Origin: Fibrobacterota bacterium
GTDB lineage: Bacteria; Fibrobacterota; Fibrobacteria; UBA11236
Direction: 5' to 3'
DNA: 64,000 bases
Assembly: GCA_947482115.1 (NCBI GenBank)
Contig: CANKII010000001.1
Location: 448,785-512,784, forward strand
Below, piece by piece: positions 3,516 to 39,915 of this stretch; position 1 is the stretch's first letter; the number at the start of each line of letters is the position of its first letter. The notes beneath the pieces are model-generated. The model saw nothing but the letters and a program-made list of their open reading frames with translations, was not told the origin of the DNA and ran no database searches. A program made the translations under genes and the position numbers.

Positions 3516-5381
3516 ATGAGCTCTTTCAAAAACCTGCGGGAGAGTCTCGATTTTCTGGAGAGCCGGGGACAACTTCGGCGCGTGGATGAAGAAGTCGATC
3601 CCCATCTGGAAATGGCCGAGATCCAACGCCGGGTTTATGCGGCCAAAGGTCCGGCTTTGTTATTCACCCGCGTTCGCGGCACAAAGTTTCCCTGCGTCTC
3701 CAATCTCTTCGGAACACATGAACGAGCGCAGCTATTGCTTGGCGACGGAATCAAACGGGCAAAGGAACTTTTAAAGCTCCGTTCCGATCCCGTGAATGCA
3801 CTCAAGCATCCGCTTCATTCGTTGCAATCCGTTTTTAAAGCACGCCATGCACTTCCACTATCCGCTTCACATCCAGCCGTTGCGGAATGTGAAACCCAAT
3901 TATCCGCATTGCCGCAAATCACCAGTTGGCCCATGGATGGCGGAGCTTTCATCACCTTGCCTTTGGCTTATACCGAACATCCGGACAAACCTGGACTCTG
4001 GGCATCCAATCTCGGCATGTATCGCGTCCAAACTTCGGGCGGTGAATATGTTCGAGATCGCGAAGCGGGACTGCATTACCAAATCCATCGCGGCATCGGA
4101 GTGCACCATCACGCCGCAATCCGGCGGGGTGAAAAGCTCAAGGTCACCATTTTCGTAGGCGGCCCGCCTGCGCACATGCTTGCAGCCGTGATGCCGTTAC
4201 CCGAAGGGATGCCGGAAATTCTGTTCGCGGGAATTCTTGGCGGCCGACCTTTCCGTTATGCGCGGAGTGAGGGACATTTACTTTCCGCCGATGCGGATTT
4301 CTGCATCACCGGAACAATCGATCCCATGCACACTTTGCCCGAAGGACCGTTCGGCGATCATATGGGATATTACAGCCTCCGACATCCGTTCCCGGTTTTG
4401 ACAGTGGAGAAGGTTACCCATCGACGCGATGCCATCTGGCCGTTCACGGTGGTGGGCAGGCCTCCACAGGAAGATTCGCATCTCGCGGAATTGATTCATG
4501 AAATCGCAGGAGGTGCATTGCCCAAGGAAATTCCGGGCCTGTATTCCGTGCATGCAGTGGAAGCCGCAGGAGTACACCCTTTGTTGCTTGCGCTTGCCAG
4601 TGATCGCTACCTGCCCTACGCCGAGCGCAAACCGCGCGAGTTGCACACCATTGGCAATGCCATATTGGGTTACAGCCAGCTTTCCCTTGCCAAGTACATC
4701 TGGCTTGCGGCACGTGAAGACGATCCTTCACTTGACATTCGCAACATCCCGGCATTTCTCAGTCATGTGCTCCGCACGGTCTCATGGGAAAAAGATTTGC
4801 ATTTCATCACACGCACAACCATGGATACATTGGATTATAGCGGCAGCGGGTTCAATGAAGGTTCCAAGCTTTTACTGACCGTGTCCGGCACAGTGCGCAG
4901 AGAACTTGCGGAAAACATTCCTGCAGAATTGCTTCGCGTCTGGCCGGAGAACTGGTCCACACCACGAATGGTGATGCCGGGAGTTCTGGTGTTTAGCGGT
5001 CCTGCGGCAAAAGGACAAGATGCGGAACCGGAAACGTTGGATGCGGAGTTGGAGAAATTTTCTGCACGATTACAGGAGGCGGGGGATACTGAAACTCTGT
5101 TGTCCGGTTTCCCGCTTTGGATTCTGGCGGATGATCCCGGCTTTGTTTCCCAATCTCTGGACAATTTCCTGTGGGTCACATTCACCCGCTCCGATCCAGC
5201 GCGTGATGTGCATGGAATTTTTGCCTTTACGGATCGCAAGCATTGGGGATGCAGGGGGCCGCTGGTTATCGACGCACGGATGAAACCCCATCATGCACCT
5301 CCGTTGGAATCCAATCCGGATGTGGTGAAAAGGGTAGAGGCGATGGCTGCACCGGGACGGGCATTACACGGGTTGTTTTGA
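3516..5381 (+). CDS. UbiD-family (de)carboxylase (3-octaprenyl-4-hydroxybenzoate carboxy-lyase-like)
   Basis: 621 aa from ATG 3516 (the track ORF 3144.. is the same frame over-extended across ridA); N-term LRESLDFLESRGQLRRVDEEVDPHLEMAEIQRRVYAAKGPALLF and length typical of UbiD. Confidence 0.8.
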   Translation: MSSFKNLRESLDFLESRGQLRRVDEEVDPHLEMAEIQRRVYAAKGPALLFTRVRGTKFPCVSNLFGTHERAQLLLGDGIKRAKELLKLRSDPVNALKHPLHSLQSVFKARHALPLSASHPAVAECETQLSALPQITSWPMDGGAFITLPLAYTEHPDKPGLWASNLGMYRVQTSGGEYVRDREAGLHYQIHRGIGVHHHAAIRRGEKLKVTIFVGGPPAHMLAAVMPLPEGMPEILFAGILGGRPFRYARSEGHLLSADADFCITGTIDPMHTLPEGPFGDHMGYYSLRHPFPVLTVEKVTHRRDAIWPFTVVGRPPQEDSHLAELIHEIAGGALPKEIPGLYSVHAVEAAGVHPLLLALASDRYLPYAERKPRELHTIGNAILGYSQLSLAKYIWLAAREDDPSLDIRNIPAFLSHVLRTVSWEKDLHFITRTTMDTLDYSGSGFNEGSKLLLTVSGTVRRELAENIPAELLRVWPENWSTPRMVMPGVLVFSGPAAKGQDAEPETLDAELEKFSARLQEAGDTETLLSGFPLWILADDPGFVSQSLDNFLWVTFTRSDPARDVHGIFAFTDRKHWGCRGPLVIDARMKPHHAPPLESNPDVVKRVEAMAAPGRALHGLF

Positions 5382-5398: not shown

Positions 5399-7204
5399 TT
5401 AATCCTCTTCGCCCGGCTTAATCCCAAATCTCCGCCTCAATTCATCCAGTGAATACCGAATCAATACCGGCGCGCCGGTGGGTGTGACATACGGATTCCT
5501 TGTAGCGAATAAACCGTCCACAATCGCAGCCATGTGCGCCGCATCAAGCGGCTGGCCCAATGGAATAGATGCTGCGCGAGCGTAGGCGCGGGCGACGCGG
5601 GCCAAGAGCTCATCCGCATCTTGATTCTTTCCGCCATGATCCGAATCCAATAATTTCCCAACCAGCGATTGCAGAATCTCCCTGGCTTTTTCCGCCGCCA
5701 CTTCACTGGGCAATCCCCGCAATTGAAACGCCGTCTTGCCGAAAGGTTCCAAATCAAATCCCAGTGCGCGGAGTTCCGGCAATCGTTCTTCAACTGCACG
5801 AGCTTCAGAGACAGTAAACTCCACCAATTCCGGAAACAAAAGCTGCTGTGCGTTGAACCGCCCCGGACGGCGCATGTCTTCCAAAGATTTTTCATACAGA
5901 ATGCGTTCATGCGCAGCCTGTTGATTCACCAGCAGAAAACCACTTTGCACCGCCACCAGAATAAAACTGCCATGAATCTGTAGGCTCGGCGCGCCAGTTG
6001 TTTCAGCGGGAACCGGCATGGATGCAGGAAAGCGAGCATCAACAGGGAAAAGTGTCGGAGCAGGAATGGATTCAACAGGTGATGGAGATTCGGAAACCGA
6101 CATGGAATCCGGTGGAGTGAAAGTAAAGGCAGGGATTTCAGTAACTGAAGTGGCTTCCGCTACTGACTCGCTTTTCACCGGTGTGGAGACATTGAGTTCC
6201 AATGACGGTGCATTGATAGTTTGACGCAACGCCTTCCGCAGGGCCTGTGACAAGGCCCAAAAGACCCGTACTTCATTGAGGAAGCGCACTTCGCGCTTCG
6301 CAGGATGAATGTTCACATCCACTTCGGCGGGGGAGATGGAGATGAACAATGCCGACACGGGATAGCGACCAGGCGAGGTGACTTCATAAGCCTGCGACAC
6401 GGCACGTGTCAACATTCCACCTTGCACATAACGGCGGTTGATGAAGAAGTATTGCTGGTTGGGGCGGCTCGAAAAACGCTGCGGCTCGGAGATATATCCC
6501 TGTATGTGAATCCCATCGCCTTCCCAGTCCACTTCCACCAAATCGGCGAGAAGATGAACACCCAAGACATCACCTGCCCGGCGGCGCAAGGTGCCTTCGG
6601 GAAGATGGAGCAATTCCCGTGTACCTTCGGAGAGCCGGATGGAAACACCGGGATGCGCCAAAGACATGCGCGTCAGTAATCCGGAAATGCGCGTACCTTC
6701 CGCCTTGCCGCTCGACAAAAATTTTCGCCGCACCGGATTATTCCGGAATAAATTTCGAATGGAAAATGTCGTCCCCTGCGGCCGCGCAATGTCCTTCAGT
6801 TCTTCCTGTTGTGATTCCACCACGCGAAGCAAGGTGCCGATTTCTTCTTCCCAATGCCGTGTCTCCACGGTGAATTCGGAAACGGCTGCCATACTGGCCA
6901 AGGCTTCTCCACGAAATCCGAAGCTGGAAACGATTTCCAAATCTTCCACCGCATTGATTTTGCTGGTGGTGTGGGGGAGCCAACAATGCGAGACATCTTC
7001 ACGTGTCATGCCCGAGCCGTTATCCGCCACGCGAATGAGTTCCTTGCCGCCATCTTCCAGCGTGATGGAAATCTTGGTGGCTCCGGCGTCCAAGGCGTTT
7101 TCGACCAATTCCTTGACCACATTGGCTGGACGCTCAATGACCTCGCCTGCAGCGATTTTTTGGATGGTTAAGGGGGAAAGAGCCTGAATTATGGGGGCGG
7201 GCAT
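5399..7204 (-). CDS. mutL: DNA mismatch repair protein MutL
   Basis: 601 aa; N-terminal GHKL ATPase motifs IAAGEVIERPANVVKELVENALDAGATKI...DNGSGM. Confidence 0.9.
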   Translation of the reverse strand: MPAPIIQALSPLTIQKIAAGEVIERPANVVKELVENALDAGATKISITLEDGGKELIRVADNGSGMTREDVSHCWLPHTTSKINAVEDLEIVSSFGFRGEALASMAAVSEFTVETRHWEEEIGTLLRVVESQQEELKDIARPQGTTFSIRNLFRNNPVRRKFLSSGKAEGTRISGLLTRMSLAHPGVSIRLSEGTRELLHLPEGTLRRRAGDVLGVHLLADLVEVDWEGDGIHIQGYISEPQRFSSRPNQQYFFINRRYVQGGMLTRAVSQAYEVTSPGRYPVSALFISISPAEVDVNIHPAKREVRFLNEVRVFWALSQALRKALRQTINAPSLELNVSTPVKSESVAEATSVTEIPAFTFTPPDSMSVSESPSPVESIPAPTLFPVDARFPASMPVPAETTGAPSLQIHGSFILVAVQSGFLLVNQQAAHERILYEKSLEDMRRPGRFNAQQLLFPELVEFTVSEARAVEERLPELRALGFDLEPFGKTAFQLRGLPSEVAAEKAREILQSLVGKLLDSDHGGKNQDADELLARVARAYARAASIPLGQPLDAAHMAAIVDGLFATRNPYVTPTGAPVLIRYSLDELRRRFGIKPGEED

Positions 7205-7229
7205 GGGGATGGGAAGTTAAGAATTATGA

Positions 7230-7378
7230 CCTCACCCCTAACCCCTCTCAATTTGTTAAAGAGATGGAGAGGGAAGGTCTAAATTTTCTTTCTTTCGCTT
7301 TTTTGGGGAACTACCCCTCTCCCGTCCTTTAAGATGGGAGAGGGGCGAATTCATAGACTATGGATTATGGGGTGAGGG
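7230..7378. repeat. composite palindromic repeat, copy A (outer CCTCACCCC...GGGGTGAGG arms enclosing two CCCCTCTC(CC)-loop-G(G)GAGAGGGG hairpins)
   Basis: Intergenic between mutL start and Rrf2 gene; same architecture as 14758..14881 and 38305..38440. Confidence 0.8.
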
Positions 7379-7420
7379 CGTTATACCCTATTGTCCATAT
7401 CAGTTTGATATGATATATTG

Positions 7421-12571: not shown

Positions 12572-13507
12572 ATGGAAAACACCCCGCTCCCCGCTTTTTC
12601 TCCACCCACAACCTTCTCCCACGGCGACCGCATCTGGCGGGCTACCGGCGATAAACTCGCCGTCCGCATTGTGCTGGTGGACAACACCGAAACCGCCAAT
12701 CGCATCGCCTCGGCGCACGGTGCACAGGCCTTCGCCCGCCAGCTTCTCGGCGAATCCATCTCCGCTTCGCTTTTGCTCGCTTCGGGTCTCAAGGGACCGG
12801 GAACGATTCAACTGCGCTTCTCGCTTTCAGGCGACATCAGCCGCGTGGCTGCCGATGCCACACCGATGGGGTTGGTGCGCGCCATGATCCCGCAGGAAGA
12901 TCTTTCCCGCACCGGAAATTTTGAACCCATGTTGCTGCCGCAAATGTTGACGGTGAGCAAGCTGGATCGCGATGGTCAGCGCATTGCCGAGGGCATCGTG
13001 GAAATGGAATCGGCGGACATCTCGCAAAGCGTAACCCATTATTTGCGCCAGAGCGAACAGGGCAAGGCTTGGCTGCGCGCGACATCGGTATGCGATACGC
13101 CTACGGGAGAACGACTGCATTTCAGCGGCGGGTTTTTAATCGAAGGTTTTCCCGGTTTGTTGGAAGCCGGGTGGAAAGCGATTGAAACGACTGCGCAAGG
13201 TTTGGATGTGGCCGCTTACGCGCTTCCCGGCGGCGGACTGGATTTACACGCTTTGTTCAACCAGTTTGCCGCGCATTTCCCTGCGCAAATTCATCAGGAG
13301 TTCAAGGTCGAGTCCTATTGTCCATGCACAGAAGACGGAGTGCTTCGCGCCATGGCGGGATTGGGACGTGACGAACTACTGAGCATTCTGATGGAAGGAC
13401 AGGATACCGAGGTGTTCTGCGAGTTCTGCCGCCGCCGTTATGCCATTCTTCCCGAGCAAATCGGAGCTCTTTTGGACGGTTTGGAGCCAGACGAAGAGCT
13501 ACCTTGA
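12572..13507 (+). CDS. hslO: redox-regulated chaperone Hsp33
   Basis: C-terminal zinc centre CPCTEDG...CEFCRRRY (CxC...CxxC) and N-terminal Hsp33 fold motifs; exact start uncertain. Confidence 0.85.
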   Translation: MENTPLPAFSPPTTFSHGDRIWRATGDKLAVRIVLVDNTETANRIASAHGAQAFARQLLGESISASLLLASGLKGPGTIQLRFSLSGDISRVAADATPMGLVRAMIPQEDLSRTGNFEPMLLPQMLTVSKLDRDGQRIAEGIVEMESADISQSVTHYLRQSEQGKAWLRATSVCDTPTGERLHFSGGFLIEGFPGLLEAGWKAIETTAQGLDVAAYALPGGGLDLHALFNQFAAHFPAQIHQEFKVESYCPCTEDGVLRAMAGLGRDELLSILMEGQDTEVFCEFCRRRYAILPEQIGALLDGLEPDEELP

Positions 13508-13527
13508 TGCCTCCGGAAGAAAAGATC

Positions 13528-15258
13528 ATGTCATACCTCGTCATGGCCCGCAAATGGCGGCCGAAGAACTTCGAAGAAATGGTGGGGCAGGAGCATATCG
13601 CCAAGACGCTCCGCAACGCCCTGACTTCCGGCCGCATCGCCCATGCATTCCTATTCACCGGAACCCGCGGAGTGGGGAAGACCACCTCCGCCAGAATTCT
13701 CGCCAAAGCCTTGAACTGCAAAAATGGCCCAACACCGACGCCTTGTGAAGTCTGCGAAAACTGCCTTGCAGTAAATCAGGGCGCATCCATGGACGTTCTC
13801 GAAATCGACGGCGCGTCCAACAACGGTGTGGACAATGTTCGCGACTTGCGCGAACAGGTGAAGTATGCGCCGATGCACGGCCAATACAAGATTTACATCA
13901 TCGACGAAGTACACATGCTTTCCAAGGCGGCGTTCAACGCTTTGCTCAAGACTTTGGAAGAGCCGCCTCCGCATGTGATTTTCATCTTCGCCACCACCGA
14001 GGTGAGCAAGGTTCCTCACACCATTTTATCCCGCGTCCAACGCTTCGACTTCCGCCGCATTTCCGAGACGGCCATTCGCGATCGACTCGACTTCATTTGC
14101 GGACAGGAAAAGATTCAGTTTGAAGTGGAAGCGCTGGAAGCCATTGCCCGTAAGGCCGACGGCAGCATGCGCGATGCACTGAGCCTGTTTGATCGCGTCG
14201 TCGCCTTTACCGGTGAAAGCCTGACTTTGGAATCCACGCGCAAGGTGCTTGGCATTCCCGAAGACCGGTTGTTCGGGAATTTGTTGAAGTGTTTGATGAC
14301 CCATGATACGGCGGGGTGTTTCAAGGCTTTGGAAGAAGTGTATCATCAGGGTTTGGAGATCTCCGAATTCCTGTCCGGCTTTGGGGAATATCTGCGTGAT
14401 GTGTTGTTCAGCCGTCAGGAAGGCATTACACCCGCTATGTTGGGAGTGGGTGAGGCGCGCTTCCGAGATTTACGAGCCTTGGCTTTGGATCTTCAAGACG
14501 GTGATTTGTTGCGCTATGCCAAGATCACTTCTGATTTACTCGGTGGTTTAAAGACTGCTCCGCATCCACGACTGTGGGTGGAACTGGGCCTGTCGCGTAT
14601 GGCCGCTTTGGATCGCGTGGTCACCTTGTCACAGTTGATGGGGCAGGAATCATTGCCTCCTGTGCATATTCAGCCTGCACCTCCGGTTCAATTGCCTACG
14701 GCAGCAGTACCTATTCCGGAACCGATTCCCGAGGCTAAAAAAAAAAGTCCTGAACAACCCTCATCCCCAACCCCTTCTCCCACGGTAGTGGGAGAAGGGG
14801 AAGAAGAAACGGTTTTAAAACCACAATTCTCTTCTCACCCCTCTCCCGCGTTTAAGGCGGGAGAGGGGCTGGGGGTGAGGGATTTACCCGCCCAATGGAC
14901 CGCATTGGTCGATTCCTATTCCATCGAAAAGCCGCTTACCGCAAGTCCCTTGCGATATAGCCACTTACGCATAAAACCTGAAGAAACTCCCGTGGTGGAA
15001 ATTGTATTTTCAGGGAGTGGACATCACGATCTTTTTCTGGCCGATGGTGAGGGGAAACGCAGCCTCAGAAACTTTCTCGCTGCATCGCTCGAAGCCGACA
15101 GTATTTTCACTTTGGCCTTCGCATTTGAAGAGCCCGTGGGTGGTACATCCAAGTCGGCTCCGGTTACGGAAGGCCTGAATGTTTTGCTGCAACGAGAGCC
15201 CATCGTAAAAACCCTGCTGGACATGTTCGAGGGGCGCGTGCTCGAAGGTCCGGTTTAA
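13528..15258 (+). CDS. dnaX: DNA polymerase III subunits gamma/tau
   Basis: AAA+ clamp-loader motifs RPKNFEEMVGQEHI, GTRGVGKTTSARILAKALNC, zinc module CEVCENC, DEVHML, SRVQRFDF; contains in-frame repeat insert 14758..14881 and A10 tract 14737..14746. Confidence 0.9.
   Translation: MSYLVMARKWRPKNFEEMVGQEHIAKTLRNALTSGRIAHAFLFTGTRGVGKTTSARILAKALNCKNGPTPTPCEVCENCLAVNQGASMDVLEIDGASNNGVDNVRDLREQVKYAPMHGQYKIYIIDEVHMLSKAAFNALLKTLEEPPPHVIFIFATTEVSKVPHTILSRVQRFDFRRISETAIRDRLDFICGQEKIQFEVEALEAIARKADGSMRDALSLFDRVVAFTGESLTLESTRKVLGIPEDRLFGNLLKCLMTHDTAGCFKALEEVYHQGLEISEFLSGFGEYLRDVLFSRQEGITPAMLGVGEARFRDLRALALDLQDGDLLRYAKITSDLLGGLKTAPHPRLWVELGLSRMAALDRVVTLSQLMGQESLPPVHIQPAPPVQLPTAAVPIPEPIPEAKKKSPEQPSSPTPSPTVVGEGEEETVLKPQFSSHPSPAFKAGEGLGVRDLPAQWTALVDSYSIEKPLTASPLRYSHLRIKPEETPVVEIVFSGSGHHDLFLADGEGKRSLRNFLAASLEADSIFTLAFAFEEPVGGTSKSAPVTEGLNVLLQREPIVKTLLDMFEGRVLEGPV
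14737..14753 (+). promoter_or_regulatory. candidate tau/gamma recoding site: A10 slippery run followed by -1-frame UGA
   Basis: AAA AAA AAA A in zero frame; -1 frame reads AAG UCC UGA (stop 14751..14753); GAGG 3 nt upstream; strong hairpin element starts 12 nt downstream. Confidence 0.45.
14758..14881. repeat. composite palindromic repeat, copy C, inserted in frame in dnaX linker
   Basis: CCCTCATCCCC-AA-CCCCTTCTCCC-loop-GGGAGAAGGGG-spacer-CCCCTCTCCC-loop-GGGAGAGGGG-CT-GGGGGTGAGGG; translated as ...SSPTPSPTVVGEGEEETVLKPQFSSHPSPAFKAGEGLGVRD... Confidence 0.8.
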
Positions 15259-37605: not shown

Positions 37606-38301
37606 ATGCACCCGTAACACACACCGGTAAATCGGTTTTCCGATCTTTCGGTATTTGATCTCAAAGTTGGTTTGAATCCCCTCGGTGGGTTCCGCTTTCG
37701 GATCGATCATTTCCAGCCACGGCATGCGTTTGAAAAGCTCCTGCGTCTCCAGATTGTATTCCTCATGATCGGTGCCAAAGAAAAACAGGGCATCGGGAGT
37801 GGAAATGCGCCGGACCTGATCGAGAAACTCTTCCTGCATGATCCGGTGTTTGTGATGCCGCTTCTTCGGCCATGGATCGGGAAAATAAACGTGCACGGCT
37901 TTTGTACAGGCATCGGGTAAAAAGTCCCGGAAGAAAATCAGGGCGTCACCCAAGACCAAACGCACGTGTTTAAGCTGGGGGCGTCGGGCCACACGACCGG
38001 CGGCGATGTAGGCGATCTCGGCTTCTTTCTCCAAAGCCAGAAAAGGCATGTCCGGATGCCTTTCGCAATAGGACGTCATGAAAGTTCCCTTGCCGCAACC
38101 CACCTCGATTTCAATGGGACCCGGGACTCCGAAAAATGCGGGGATGTCGATGGGCGTTGTCGCCGGAGTGTTTTCCGTCCTCAGCAGGGGAAGGTCTGCA
38201 TCGTCCTTCAGCAACCGCAAATGAAAATAGTGTTTCAGGTCGTGGCTGGGGGTCAGCGCACGCTGGAATTCGTAAGAGGATAGCCCGGAGGGAAGGGACA
38301 T
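37597..38301 (-). CDS. trmB: tRNA (guanine46-N7)-methyltransferase
   Basis: IEVGCGKGTFM SAM motif, ...FPDPWPKKRHHKHR. Confidence 0.85.
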   Translation of the reverse strand: MSLPSGLSSYEFQRALTPSHDLKHYFHLRLLKDDADLPLLRTENTPATTPIDIPAFFGVPGPIEIEVGCGKGTFMTSYCERHPDMPFLALEKEAEIAYIAAGRVARRPQLKHVRLVLGDALIFFRDFLPDACTKAVHVYFPDPWPKKRHHKHRIMQEEFLDQVRRISTPDALFFFGTDHEEYNLETQELFKRMPWLEMIDPKAEPTEGIQTNFEIKYRKIGKPIYRCVLRVHPP

Positions 38302-38304
38302 ACG

Positions 38305-38440
38305 CCCTCACCCCCAACCCCTCTCCCATCTTAAAGGATGGGAGAGGGGAGAGGAACAAATGTTTTTTTTTGTTTTGAACACGAGCATTTATCTTCCCCC
38401 CTCTCCCACTTTTTGGTGGGAGAGGGGATGGGGGTGAGGG
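38305..38440. repeat. composite palindromic repeat, copy B
   Basis: CCCTCACCCCC-AA-CCCCTCTCCC-loop-GGGAGAGGGG-AT-rich spacer (T9 run)-CCCCTCTCCC-loop-GGGAGAGGGG-AT-GGGGGTGAGGG between trmB and gatB; causes ORF caller to over-extend gatB to 38338. Confidence 0.8.
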
Positions 38441-38463
38441 TCGAGAAAACTAACTTTCATTTC

Positions 38464-39915
38464 ATGTCATACAGCATTGTCATTGGATTGGAAGTACACG
38501 CCCAGCTCTCCACAAACACCAAAATGTTTTGCGGTTGCCGGGTCGAATTTGGCGCAGAGCCGAACACCTTGATTTGCCCCGTCTGCCTCGGTATGCCCGG
38601 CACCTTGCCTGCGCCCAATGCGACGGCTGTGGAAAGCGCTGTCAAAATGGGACTGGCCTGCGGCTCCCGGATTGAGCCGCGCCCCATGTGGACGCGCAAG
38701 AATTATTTCTATCCCGATCTTCCCAAGGGTTACCAGATCACCCAGCAGGGGGGATCGCCGATTTACGATAAGCCGATTTGCACCGGCGGCCATCTTGAAA
38801 TCGATTTGGAAGATGGAACCCGCAAGCGTATCCGGTTGAACCGCATCCACATGGAAGAGGATGCCGGAAAACTGATTCACGATCTCACGGTCAATGATTC
38901 CCTGTTCGATGCCAATCGCTGCGGCACGCCCCTGATCGAGATTGTCACTGAAGCGGATCTTCGCTCGCCGCGTGAAGCTTATCTGTATCTGGAAAAGCTC
39001 AAGCAAATTCTCGAATATCTTGAGATTTGCGACGCGAACATGGAACGCGGAAACTTGCGTTGTGATGCCAACATCTCATTGCGTAAAGATGAGAACGCTC
39101 CGTTCGGCGAACGCATTGAACTCAAGAACATGAACTCTTTCCACAACATTGAAAAAGCGTTGGAATCGGAGATTGAATTACAGGCAGGAATGCTGGATCG
39201 CGGCGAAGTCGTCAAGCGTGTGACCAAACGTTGGGATGTGCAAAAAGGCGTCACTGTGTCCGTGCGTAGCAAGGAAGATGCGCAGGACTACCGTTATTTC
39301 CCGGAACCCGATTTGGTGCGTCTGAGCGTCACTGAAGCAGATGTGGAATCCATCCGAAAGGTTTTACCGGAATTGCCGGAGGCCCGTCGTCGTCGTTATG
39401 TCGAAGTTTACAGCGTCCCGCCTTATGACGCCGATGTATTGACCCGTGAAAAGGCAGTCTCGGAATTTTTTGAATCCGTATGCGCAGTGACCTCCGACAA
39501 GAAGGCTGCTTCCAACTGGGTCATGGGCGAAGTGTTGCGTGTGCTCAAGGATGGAAATCTCTCCATCACTGATTTGAAATTCACCCCGCAGCATTTGGGA
39601 GAGATGATCAATCTCATTCAAACGGGAGCCATTTCAGGCAAGATCGCCAAAACCGTTTTCGAACACATGGTGGCCGAAGGCAAACCACCGGAGCAAATCG
39701 TCCGCGAGCAGAATCTTTCCGTGATCAGCGACTCTTCCGCCATTGAAGGATTTATCCGTCAGGTGATGGAACAGGATGCCGAGAAGGTAGGCGAGTACCG
39801 GAGTGGCAAGGTGAAATTGTTCGGCTATTTCGTGGGTCAGGTGATGAAGGCCTGTCAGGGCAAAGCCAGCCCGGATCAAGTAAATGCCCTGTTGCAAAAG
39901 ATGCTGGCGGGGTAG
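38464..39915 (+). CDS. gatB: Asp-tRNA(Asn)/Glu-tRNA(Gln) amidotransferase subunit B
   Basis: MSYSIVIGLEVHAQLSTNTKMFCGC...ICPVCLG (GatB N-terminal Zn/cradle motifs); true start ATG 38464. Confidence 0.9.
   Translation: MSYSIVIGLEVHAQLSTNTKMFCGCRVEFGAEPNTLICPVCLGMPGTLPAPNATAVESAVKMGLACGSRIEPRPMWTRKNYFYPDLPKGYQITQQGGSPIYDKPICTGGHLEIDLEDGTRKRIRLNRIHMEEDAGKLIHDLTVNDSLFDANRCGTPLIEIVTEADLRSPREAYLYLEKLKQILEYLEICDANMERGNLRCDANISLRKDENAPFGERIELKNMNSFHNIEKALESEIELQAGMLDRGEVVKRVTKRWDVQKGVTVSVRSKEDAQDYRYFPEPDLVRLSVTEADVESIRKVLPELPEARRRRYVEVYSVPPYDADVLTREKAVSEFFESVCAVTSDKKAASNWVMGEVLRVLKDGNLSITDLKFTPQHLGEMINLIQTGAISGKIAKTVFEHMVAEGKPPEQIVREQNLSVISDSSAIEGFIRQVMEQDAEKVGEYRSGKVKLFGYFVGQVMKACQGKASPDQVNALLQKMLAG

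Follow-up and report, generated by a model that had tools for sequence, protein, structure and literature searches.

An inverted pair of BoxC/PIT/TM-type repeat units read in frame within the linker region of dnaX in a Fibrobacterota bacterium

The stretch of DNA analyzed here (the window) comprises 64,000 nt of contig CANKII010000001.1 in assembly GCA_947482115.1 of an uncultured Fibrobacterota bacterium, and the subject of this work is a 124-bp palindromic repeat located inside its dnaX gene. The open reading frame (ORF) at 13504-15258 encodes DnaX (Pfam DNA_pol3_delta2, DNAX_ATPase_lid, and DNA_pol3_gamma3), and its hsp33-dnaX-ybaB-hemA neighborhood is syntenic in relatives. All 12 orthologues begin with MSYL, so that translation most likely starts at the ATG of MSYLV..., position 13528, eight codons into the listed ORF. 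The repeat is an inverted pair of units of the BoxC/PIT/"intrastrand triplex motif" (TM) type, a known and very widespread family, and it lies immediately downstream of a run of ten adenines and the presumed stop codon of gamma. The reading that we favor, with fair though not full confidence, is that such a pair became fixed in the one open frame of a composition-tolerant tether present in tau only, and was retained there as linker. An initial annotation, made from the letters alone, had already reported the repeat and its place in the dnaX reading frame; its membership in the BoxC/PIT/TM family, the adjoining A10 run and gamma stop, the replacement of the linker, and the age of the insertion, which is old and shared with a relative, go beyond that annotation. 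The features of the locus are as follows.

13528-15258, plus strand: dnaX coding sequence (tau, 576 amino acids), from the ORF list (13504-15258), orthologue starts, Pfam, and synteny.
14737-14747, plus strand: A10 run plus G, codons AAA AAA AAA AGT (KKKS), the presumed slippage site and gamma/tau boundary.
14751-14753, plus strand: TGA in the -1 frame (AAG TCC TGA), two codons past the slip and 4 nt before the element, from frame translations.
14758-14881, plus strand: the whole element, an inverted pair of BoxC/PIT/TM-type units encoding 41 in-frame residues of the tau linker.
14758-14800, minus strand (G-rich sense): left TM unit, third block CCCTCATCCCC at 14758-14768 plus a hairpin at 14771-14800, from fold, triads, and nhmmer.
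14801-14837, no strand: central A/T-rich spacer, which differs between the window copies and resembles the dnaX spacer of the closest relative (locus L001), from alignments.
14838-14881, plus strand: right TM unit, hairpin at 14838-14868, C at 14869, TG at 14870-14871, and triad block GGGGTGAGGG at 14872-14881.

The element is a nested palindrome whose boundaries had been placed exactly in the initial annotation. Its outer stem joins 14758-14769 to 14870-14881 through 12 pairs, one of which is G-U, and encloses two hairpins. The left hairpin, CCCCTTCTCCCAC-GGTA-GTGGGAGAAGGGG, has arms at 14771-14783 and 14788-14800 that form 13 perfect pairs; the right hairpin, CCCCTCTCCCGC-GTTTAAG-GCGGGAGAGGGG, has arms at 14838-14849 and 14857-14868 that form 12 perfect pairs around a 7-nt loop, and the stretch from T14870 to G14881 doubles as the 3' arm of the outer stem. 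The predicted RNA fold of the element reaches -86.8 kcal/mol, compared with -48.3 +/- 4.2 kcal/mol for dinucleotide shuffles (z = -9.1), and none of 200 shuffles was as stable. No Rfam family reached its gathering score anywhere in the window. The element is real and not an assembly artefact, because the identical DnaX protein was read on 24 contigs (the index entry has 43 blocks) and two independent assemblies (ENA and Logan) are identical to the window at the DNA level across 7.7 kb. The sole strain variant within the insert among the contigs read is V427G, in the loop of the left hairpin.

Two intergenic loci of the window carry the same architecture, as the initial annotation had noticed. 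An nhmmer profile built on the six half-elements finds exactly these three loci within 64 kb (E values of 3e-11 to 1e-7) and no other significant match, the three copies align to each other in both orientations, and the block CCCTCTCCC occurs eight times in the window (0.5 expected), always inside the three loci. The two intergenic copies are the following.

7230-7378, no strand: intergenic copy between the divergent genes mutL (start codon at 7204, minus strand) and an Rrf2-family gene (start at about 7418).
38305-38440, no strand: intergenic copy between the divergent genes trmB-like (start codon at 38301, minus strand) and gatB (ATG at 38464).

Both thus lie between divergent genes (spacers 7205-7417 and 38302-38463) and take up most of each spacer. 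The copy at 7230-7378 has a degenerate left hairpin and a right outer arm shifted by a 23-nt insertion, while that at 38305-38440 is the best preserved, occupies most of its 162-nt spacer, and has a run of nine T at its center. A simple scan confined to the gatB spacer gave no sigma-70-like promoter, and within the dnaX and gatB elements themselves scanning for promoters and terminators showed nothing like either. The ORF listed at 38338-39915 starts within the repeat (..LVGEGMGVRV..), and the true gatB start is most likely the ATG at 38464 (MSYSIVIGLEVHAQL), so that the N-terminal extension of gatB had rightly been called spurious.

Each half of the element is made of three blocks, CCCCTCTCCC, after a loop its complement GGGAGAGGGG, and then a third mirror block GGGGTGAGGG, and the two units face outwards around the A/T-rich spacer. 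BoxC is said to have been described earlier by Bergler (1992) and by Bachellier (1990s). The analysis of Holder et al. 2015 (PMC4666352) names this motif TM_ECO, formerly BoxC (1990s) and PIT element (Hoyne & Maher 2000), and defines it as 5'-CCCTCNCCC N3-6 GGGNGAGGG N3 GGGNGAGGG. According to the same study (PMC4666352), 3610 copies are present in 262 proteobacterial genomes and related G/C-rich motifs are abundant in cyanobacteria; E. coli K-12 has 23 copies, every one of them intergenic, and five of its sites are inverted pairs. The units form a purine-motif intrastrand triplex in vitro that was undetected in vivo, and a quadruplex was considered for the E. coli units and then excluded by nuclear magnetic resonance (PMC4666352). 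PIT elements show neither promoter nor terminator activity and have no effect on RNA polymerase, local genomic instability is found near them, and the turnover of BoxC loci is high (PMC4666352).

The core CCCTCNCCC ... GGGNGAGGG ... GGGNGAGGG is present in the window element when it is aligned to units 17 and 18 of E. coli K-12 and to Table 1 of PMC4666352. The E. coli pair (TM/BoxC 17+18), located in the lldD-trmL spacer, reads CCCTCACCC-TAA-CCCTCTCCC-loop-GGGAGAGGG, a 59-nt spacer, and CCCTCGCCCC-loop-GGGGAGAGGG-CCG-GGGTGAGGG, and has the same layout and core blocks as the element described here. The strict TM_ECO pattern, which allows a first loop of 3-6 nt and a second of just 3 nt, has no match in the window, because the hairpins are 2-3 bp longer; a relaxed pattern (loops of 3-14 and 2-6 nt) is matched by three halves, the right dnaX unit among them, with none expected. 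All six half-elements contain 8-11 uninterrupted allowed triads (G·G:C, A·A:T, and T·A:T), whereas their shuffles average 3.2-4.0 with a maximum of 8. In the dnaX copy the left unit has 11 such purine-motif triads (shuffle mean 3.2, maximum 6; nhmmer E = 1e-7) and the right unit has 10 (nhmmer E = 9e-9), and the G-rich half of the right unit also fits the standard four-G-tract quadruplex pattern. The element thus shares with BoxC/PIT/TM repeats the three core blocks, their order, the mirror-plus-complement arrangement, and the dispersed copies in inverted "palindromic" pairs, here three loci in 64 kb, each of them such a pair. It differs in its longer stems (12-13 bp), in the longer stretches between the 9-nt blocks, and in that the dnaX copy is intragenic, translated, and hosted by a Fibrobacterota metagenome-assembled genome, whereas the E. 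coli K-12 copies are extragenic. By analogy with the E. coli units in vitro, the dnaX element may form an intrastrand triplex as DNA. Purine-motif triplexes do not form in RNA (PMC4666352), and therefore only the hairpins, and possibly an RNA quadruplex, are relevant at the mRNA level.

The family is not confined to the phyla in which it was described. The end motif CCTCACCCCNANCCCCTCTC, with 18 specified bases, is present at no fewer than 120 loci in GTDB species genomes of many phyla, compared with about 17 expected for a random 18-mer by a back-of-envelope estimate; the matches listed include Chloroflexota, Bacteroidota, Planctomycetota, Cyanobacteria, Acidobacteriota, Armatimonadota, Proteobacteria, Nitrospirota, a candidate phyla radiation (CPR) genome, and others, and nearly all the matches listed at L008-L060 carry the unit of third block plus hairpin. 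Since the motif recurs almost unchanged across phyla, the element is not a lineage-specific miniature inverted-repeat transposable element (MITE). It resembles MITEs and the REP doublets (REPINs) that RAYT transposases mobilize in having two inverted short palindromes around a spacer that together form one long hairpin, in being non-coding and multi-copy, and in its variable presence between relatives, and it has a 12-bp outer inverted repeat and inverted units in the manner of MITE terminal inverted repeats. REPINs and MITEs are lineage-specific, while the TM motif is nearly identical across phyla, and the only coding partner of TM units found elsewhere is a DUF559 Vsr-like endonuclease (see below). 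No target-site duplication was detected in the flanks of the three window copies or by comparison with empty or orthologous sites, and no RAYT or insertion-sequence transposase turned up in the 64-kb window, in which no search with transposase profiles was made. The element is presumably mobile.

The dnaX frame passes through the element uninterrupted as PSSPTPSPTVVGEGEEETVLKPQFSSHPSPAFKAGEGLGVR(D), that is, as 41 residues rich in Pro, Ser, Gly, and Glu; of the six possible frames of the repeat, no other is open. The predicted insert-derived tryptic peptides of tau are SPEQPSSPTPSPTVVGEGEEETVLK, PQFSSHPSPAFK, and AGEGLGVR. The insert corresponds to residues 419-459 (ORF numbering) and abuts the C-terminal domain. 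In an AlphaFold model based on a 13-sequence alignment, residues 375-453 are coil with a predicted local distance difference test score (pLDDT) below 50, and the C-terminal domain, the first helix of which spans 458-475, is modeled with confidence; according to this model the insert lies in a disordered tether between domains I-III and the C-terminal domain. In the orthologue alignment the linker is the most variable part of DnaX in both length and sequence. The alignment and the model together uphold the earlier statement that the Pro/Ser/Gly-rich peptide belongs to the variable linker of tau, past domain III. The stretch that runs from KKKSPE up to the conserved Trp has 54 residues in the window protein, 59 in its closest relative (P0002), and 46 in P0004, and between KKKSPE and the first C-terminal helix of the window protein only about five residues are not encoded by the element. 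The element therefore is now the linker: it replaces rather than lengthens it, and almost the whole tether is element.

The distribution of the encoded peptide was followed among the best 120 DnaX homologues, with the element-encoded peptide as the signature. It is found only in the P0001 cluster, which represents the window lineage, and in P0002, which is the closest relative among the homologues compared (89.9% identity in domains I-III, 77% overall). A protein search with the 44-residue insert peptide returned nothing, since too few 5-residue words were shared with any candidate. No unrelated lineage among them has a homologous linker without the palindrome, the case that the initial annotation had named as refuting its view; the sister locus L001, which encodes P0002, still carries the left arm (E = 2e-4). 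It would be a very improbable account that the hairpins are the by-product of a conserved linker peptide, or that the locus is an assembly chimera formed at a repeat. The P0002 peptide is similar, and repeats often break assemblies, as in contig L131 (see below), but the peptide is absent from the 118 other DnaX homologues, the DNA blocks are identical to an intergenic repeat of the window, of E. coli, and of many phyla, and independent data sets yielded the same assembly of the locus.

The syntenic locus L001 keeps a half-decayed copy at the same site, and the insertion must therefore have happened no later than the divergence of the window lineage from L001. There the left unit, GCCCTCACCCCCAACCCCCTCTCCCATGAAAATGGAAGAGGGA, is recognizable 6 nt further from the A run, and the right half has decayed to about 60% identity in an alignment read by eye; the linker peptide of P0002 reads PSPPTPSP...EGKKEPVE. 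The dnaX spacer of L001 is closer to the window dnaX spacer than those of the window's other copies are, and in pairwise alignments the spacer blocks GAAACGG..AACCAC..CTCTTC are common to the window dnaX copy and L001 only. The linkers of P0004 (L006) and P0013 (L129) are unrelated to the element. P0003 (L004) was considered as a third carrier and rejected, as its resemblance to the left arm is only vestigial (about 16 of 24 positions in an alignment by eye) and nhmmer gives no match. From these comparisons we infer that the element came by insertion and did not arise in place. Comparison with orthologues, which the initial annotation had suggested as a means to define the boundaries and a target-site duplication, revealed no such duplication.

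The intergenic copies turn over faster than the dnaX copy, because the 7230 copy is missing from the orthologous intergenic region of L001. The site in L001 that is orthologous to the 7230 copy (about 4100-4135) contains another perfect palindrome, GGTAGGGGTTGGGT-TT-ACCCAACCCCTACC, in place of the TM pair. Such turnover is one of several observations that would suit a different history of the dnaX site, in which a relic at a hot spot within dnaX was overwritten later, by a new insertion or by gene conversion from other copies, in a genome where the family is currently active. The window has both TM units of dnaX intact, and L001 has lost the right half; the window genome has further intact copies and the 21.7 kb of L001 have none; and a high turnover of BoxC loci was reported by Holder et al. 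(PMC4666352). The dnaX spacer, however, resembles that of L001 and not those of the other window copies, which argues for orthology of the whole element, so that at most the arms were converted, and no element-free strain was found among the 24 contigs read. We consider this history unlikely. A 1-kb metagenome contig (L131, positions 1-160) begins in a right-hand unit almost identical to that of dnaX and in the same frame, and after eight codons continues with the last ~25 residues of DnaX and then ybaB, the C-terminal domain being missing; possible readings of it are a variant with a deletion next to the repeat, insertion at a second site, and an error of assembly.

The element lies just downstream of the A10 run, presumed from its sequence to be a programmed slippage site that makes gamma in Fibrobacterota. 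In the zero frame the region reads AAA AAA AAA AGT CCT GAA. Gamma, of about 408 amino acids, would end at the -1-frame stop at 14751-14753, and the element, which begins at 14758, would be translated in tau only, because that stop precedes it. The arrangement A10-G-YCC-TGA is identical in all five orthologous DNAs compared (the window, L001, L004, L006, and L129), KKK is kept at this position in most of the best 120 DnaX homologues, and the A10 run at 14737 is the only intragenic A run of at least nine in the window. The +1 frame reaches a stop 13 codons on in the window and 3-5 codons on in the orthologues. E. coli dnaX is known to use ribosomal frameshifting on A_AAA_AAG with an SD-like sequence and, as stimulator, a 3' stem-loop, Thermus dnaX uses transcriptional slippage on A9, slippage was proposed by Antonov et al. 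for dnaX genes with 10 A, and runs of 9-10 A are thought to slip in transcription without a 3' structure (PMC3711429, PMC5009743). The window gene agrees with the Thermus/10-A type in having a run of at least nine A at the gamma/tau boundary and nearby stops in the alternative frames. Several DnaX gene calls in databases, 389-415 amino acids long, end within a few residues past KKK (P0019, P0020, P0026, P0027, P0069, P0070, P0075, and P0079), which fits A-run length differences, either real or due to sequencing errors, or the two-ORF dnaX of Antonov et al.

The closeness of a very stable palindrome to this site bears on another reading, in which the palindrome is kept as a cis-acting recoding or expression element: ribosomes or RNA polymerase would pause at the stable RNA structure, or at a triplex or quadruplex of the DNA. 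The likeness to known dnaX recoding cassettes consists of a homopolymeric A run at the boundary of domain III and linker, a stop two codons into the -1 frame, and a strong downstream stem-loop; the outer stem begins 12 nt past the in-frame A_AAA_AAA and 4 nt past the -1-frame UGA, the stability of the fold (-86.8 kcal/mol, z = -9) is far outside that of shuffles, and the structure is perfect in the window, compensated changes included, and decaying in the sister copy. A 3' stem-loop stimulator in E. coli dnaX provides the precedent (PMC3711429, PMC5009743). Against it, the same A10/UGA cassette in element-free orthologues is followed by no significant structure over 70 nt (z = +0.7, -1.7, and -0.7), so that a stimulator is neither ancestral nor required, and the ancestral A10 cassette would work without a 3' structure, as expected for slippage on a long A run. 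The structure of the window gene is a lineage-specific repeat, the L001 element lies 6 nt further off and is half destroyed, and the in-frame heptamer is A_AAA_AAA and not A_AAA_AAG, the former being less shift-prone. The first hairpin begins 25 nt, and even the outer stem 12 nt, past the A10 run, both more than the spacer of the E. coli cassette, which is about 6 nt. Runs of 9-10 A are held to slip unaided (PMC3711429, PMC5009743), and PIT elements were inert in RNA polymerase, promoter, and terminator assays (PMC4666352). We therefore regard a cis-acting role as improbable, and equally so its more specific form in which pausing sets the tau:gamma ratio or protects the untranslated 3' part of slipped (gamma) transcripts; the evidence hints at best faintly at a role in setting that ratio. 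The frame, the spacing, and the lack of conservation speak largely against the element as the canonical dnaX frameshift stem-loop, which it probably is not.

For the reading that we prefer, a repeat fixed in a tolerant tether and retained as linker, the following course can be proposed. The repeat would have entered the dnaX linker in the common ancestor of the window lineage and its closest known relative, landing directly 3' of the A10 run and the -1-frame UGA of gamma. A selfish or structure-prone repeat could have settled there in its sole open frame, in a segment where composition outweighs sequence; what was a passive passenger would now serve as linker, and its removal would need a precise in-frame deletion. 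Tolerance of the element within the gene is consistent with its only open frame being the one used and with its lack of any promoter- or terminator-like site, the latter in agreement with the tests on PIT elements (PMC4666352). By this account the element probably has no dedicated function.

Several observations weigh against so passive a history. A purely neutral passenger of that age should decay in both lineages, yet only the L001 orthologue has lost its right half, and the dnaX palindrome of the window shows no structural defect. Three coordinated changes are also seen in the window: compared with the consensus, the left unit of the dnaX copy has a T inserted in one hairpin arm, an A inserted in the other, and a C to T change in the third block, and these keep both the hairpin and the triad register, the T:A pair gained by the hairpin having its counterpart in an additional A of the third block. 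As a single case this is consistent with constraint or with a copying mechanism acting across all three blocks. The perfect window copy beside the decayed L001 copy therefore has to be explained by later re-insertion, by selection for the structure, or by concerted evolution of this copy with others, and the upkeep of the palindrome may possibly also reflect template-switch repair of quasi-palindromes. The position directly past a recoding site may be no coincidence. Finally, as neither a target-site duplication nor a mobilizing gene was found, "insertion" rests on comparative absence, and as 124 nt is not a multiple of three and the linker was replaced and not extended, no clean insertion is seen.

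Rickettsia palindromic elements (RPEs), reportedly described by Ogata et al. 2000, are the closest precedent for palindromic repeats read in frame. The likeness lies in a palindromic repeat of about 100-150 bp, both intergenic and in frame in genes, essential ones included, at a structurally permissive site. The two have nothing in common in sequence family, in base composition, or in the range of hosts, and RPEs add residues, while the dnaX element, adjacent to a recoding site, has taken the place of almost all of the linker. The comparison drawn in the initial annotation is therefore fair as an analogy and does not extend to membership, which we do not claim: the blocks are of the BoxC type and the host belongs to the Fibrobacterota. 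RPEs are mentioned in passing in PMC1779305.

In-frame copies elsewhere point to a possible origin of such pairs. Among 120 loci selected for the end motif, open frames around the motif were screened and the cases examined with Pfam. TM units were found in frame within genuine proteins of several other phyla, and Pfam confirmed MetRS, LeuRS, AroC (chorismate synthase), and MnmE; in the MetRS case the insert follows the catalytic and anticodon domains and precedes the tRNA_bind domain. In MetRS, LeuRS, and AroC inverted units flank an ORF for DUF559, a Vsr-like endonuclease, and at L053 and L110 this arrangement is free-standing (Pfam E values of 8e-27 to 2e-38). The loci concerned are given in one line.

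In-frame and DUF559 loci: L011, about 2090-2680; L054, 6890-7440; L081, 1-400; L105; L053, 400-930; L110, 60-760.

All seven DUF559 ORFs in the 120 loci are within about 300 nt of a motif match or are flanked by TM-encoded peptides. The hairpin-encoded tail PSP-x-GRG occurs in 27 of 120 cyanobacterial DUF559 homologues, compared with none of 118 DnaX homologues. One Nostoc DUF559 gene, picked from the list of tailed proteins and having a TM-encoded C-terminal tail, has TM units on both sides, but in the opposite orientation; a second such gene has none. In E. coli K-12 the DUF559 gene ycjD (L132, NC_000913.3 1351205-1351760, next to fabI) ends with ...RSPSP and a stop, encoded by CCCTCTCCC, lies about 170 nt from BoxC/TM no. 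9, and is the only DUF559 gene in the K-12 region examined. A profile search detected no DUF559 ORF in the window or in L001-L007. Our literature searches found no paper tying DUF559 to BoxC/PIT/TM repeats and none relevant to the encoded peptides. Together these observations suggest that a selfish element with a DUF559 gene may have given rise to the ORF-less pair of dnaX. We offer as a tentative proposal that BoxC/TM pairs in general are the ORF-less form of a pan-bacterial selfish element, the full form of which has a DUF559 (PD-(D/E)XK) gene between the units, and, no more firmly, that this element may settle in frame in housekeeping genes such as dnaX, metG, leuS, aroC, and mnmE. To our knowledge no function has been assigned to BoxC/PIT repeats since the 1990s; if true, the proposal would give them an origin and a mobilizing or homing enzyme.

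Both the repeat family and the in-frame insertion of palindromic repeats (RPEs) were already known, and what is new here is the phylum and the unusual place. There is no evidence for a new kind of system, and the dnaX copy is probably a passive case. It does show that a tau-specific tether can be built almost wholly from a repeat, right past a recoding site, and it provides a natural construct with which to ask whether a very stable 3' structure alters the tau:gamma ratio at an A10 run. On the practical side, TM units create spurious ORF extensions, such as that of gatB, and peptides of the PSP..GEG.GVR type in protein databases. BoxC/PIT/TM units are neither strictly extragenic nor limited to Proteobacteria and Cyanobacteria, and the units shared across phyla, the in-frame copies in housekeeping genes, and the coupling to DUF559, E. 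coli ycjD included, make the spread of these repeats directly testable. If confirmed, the DUF559 coupling and the in-frame housekeeping copies would outweigh the dnaX copy in importance.

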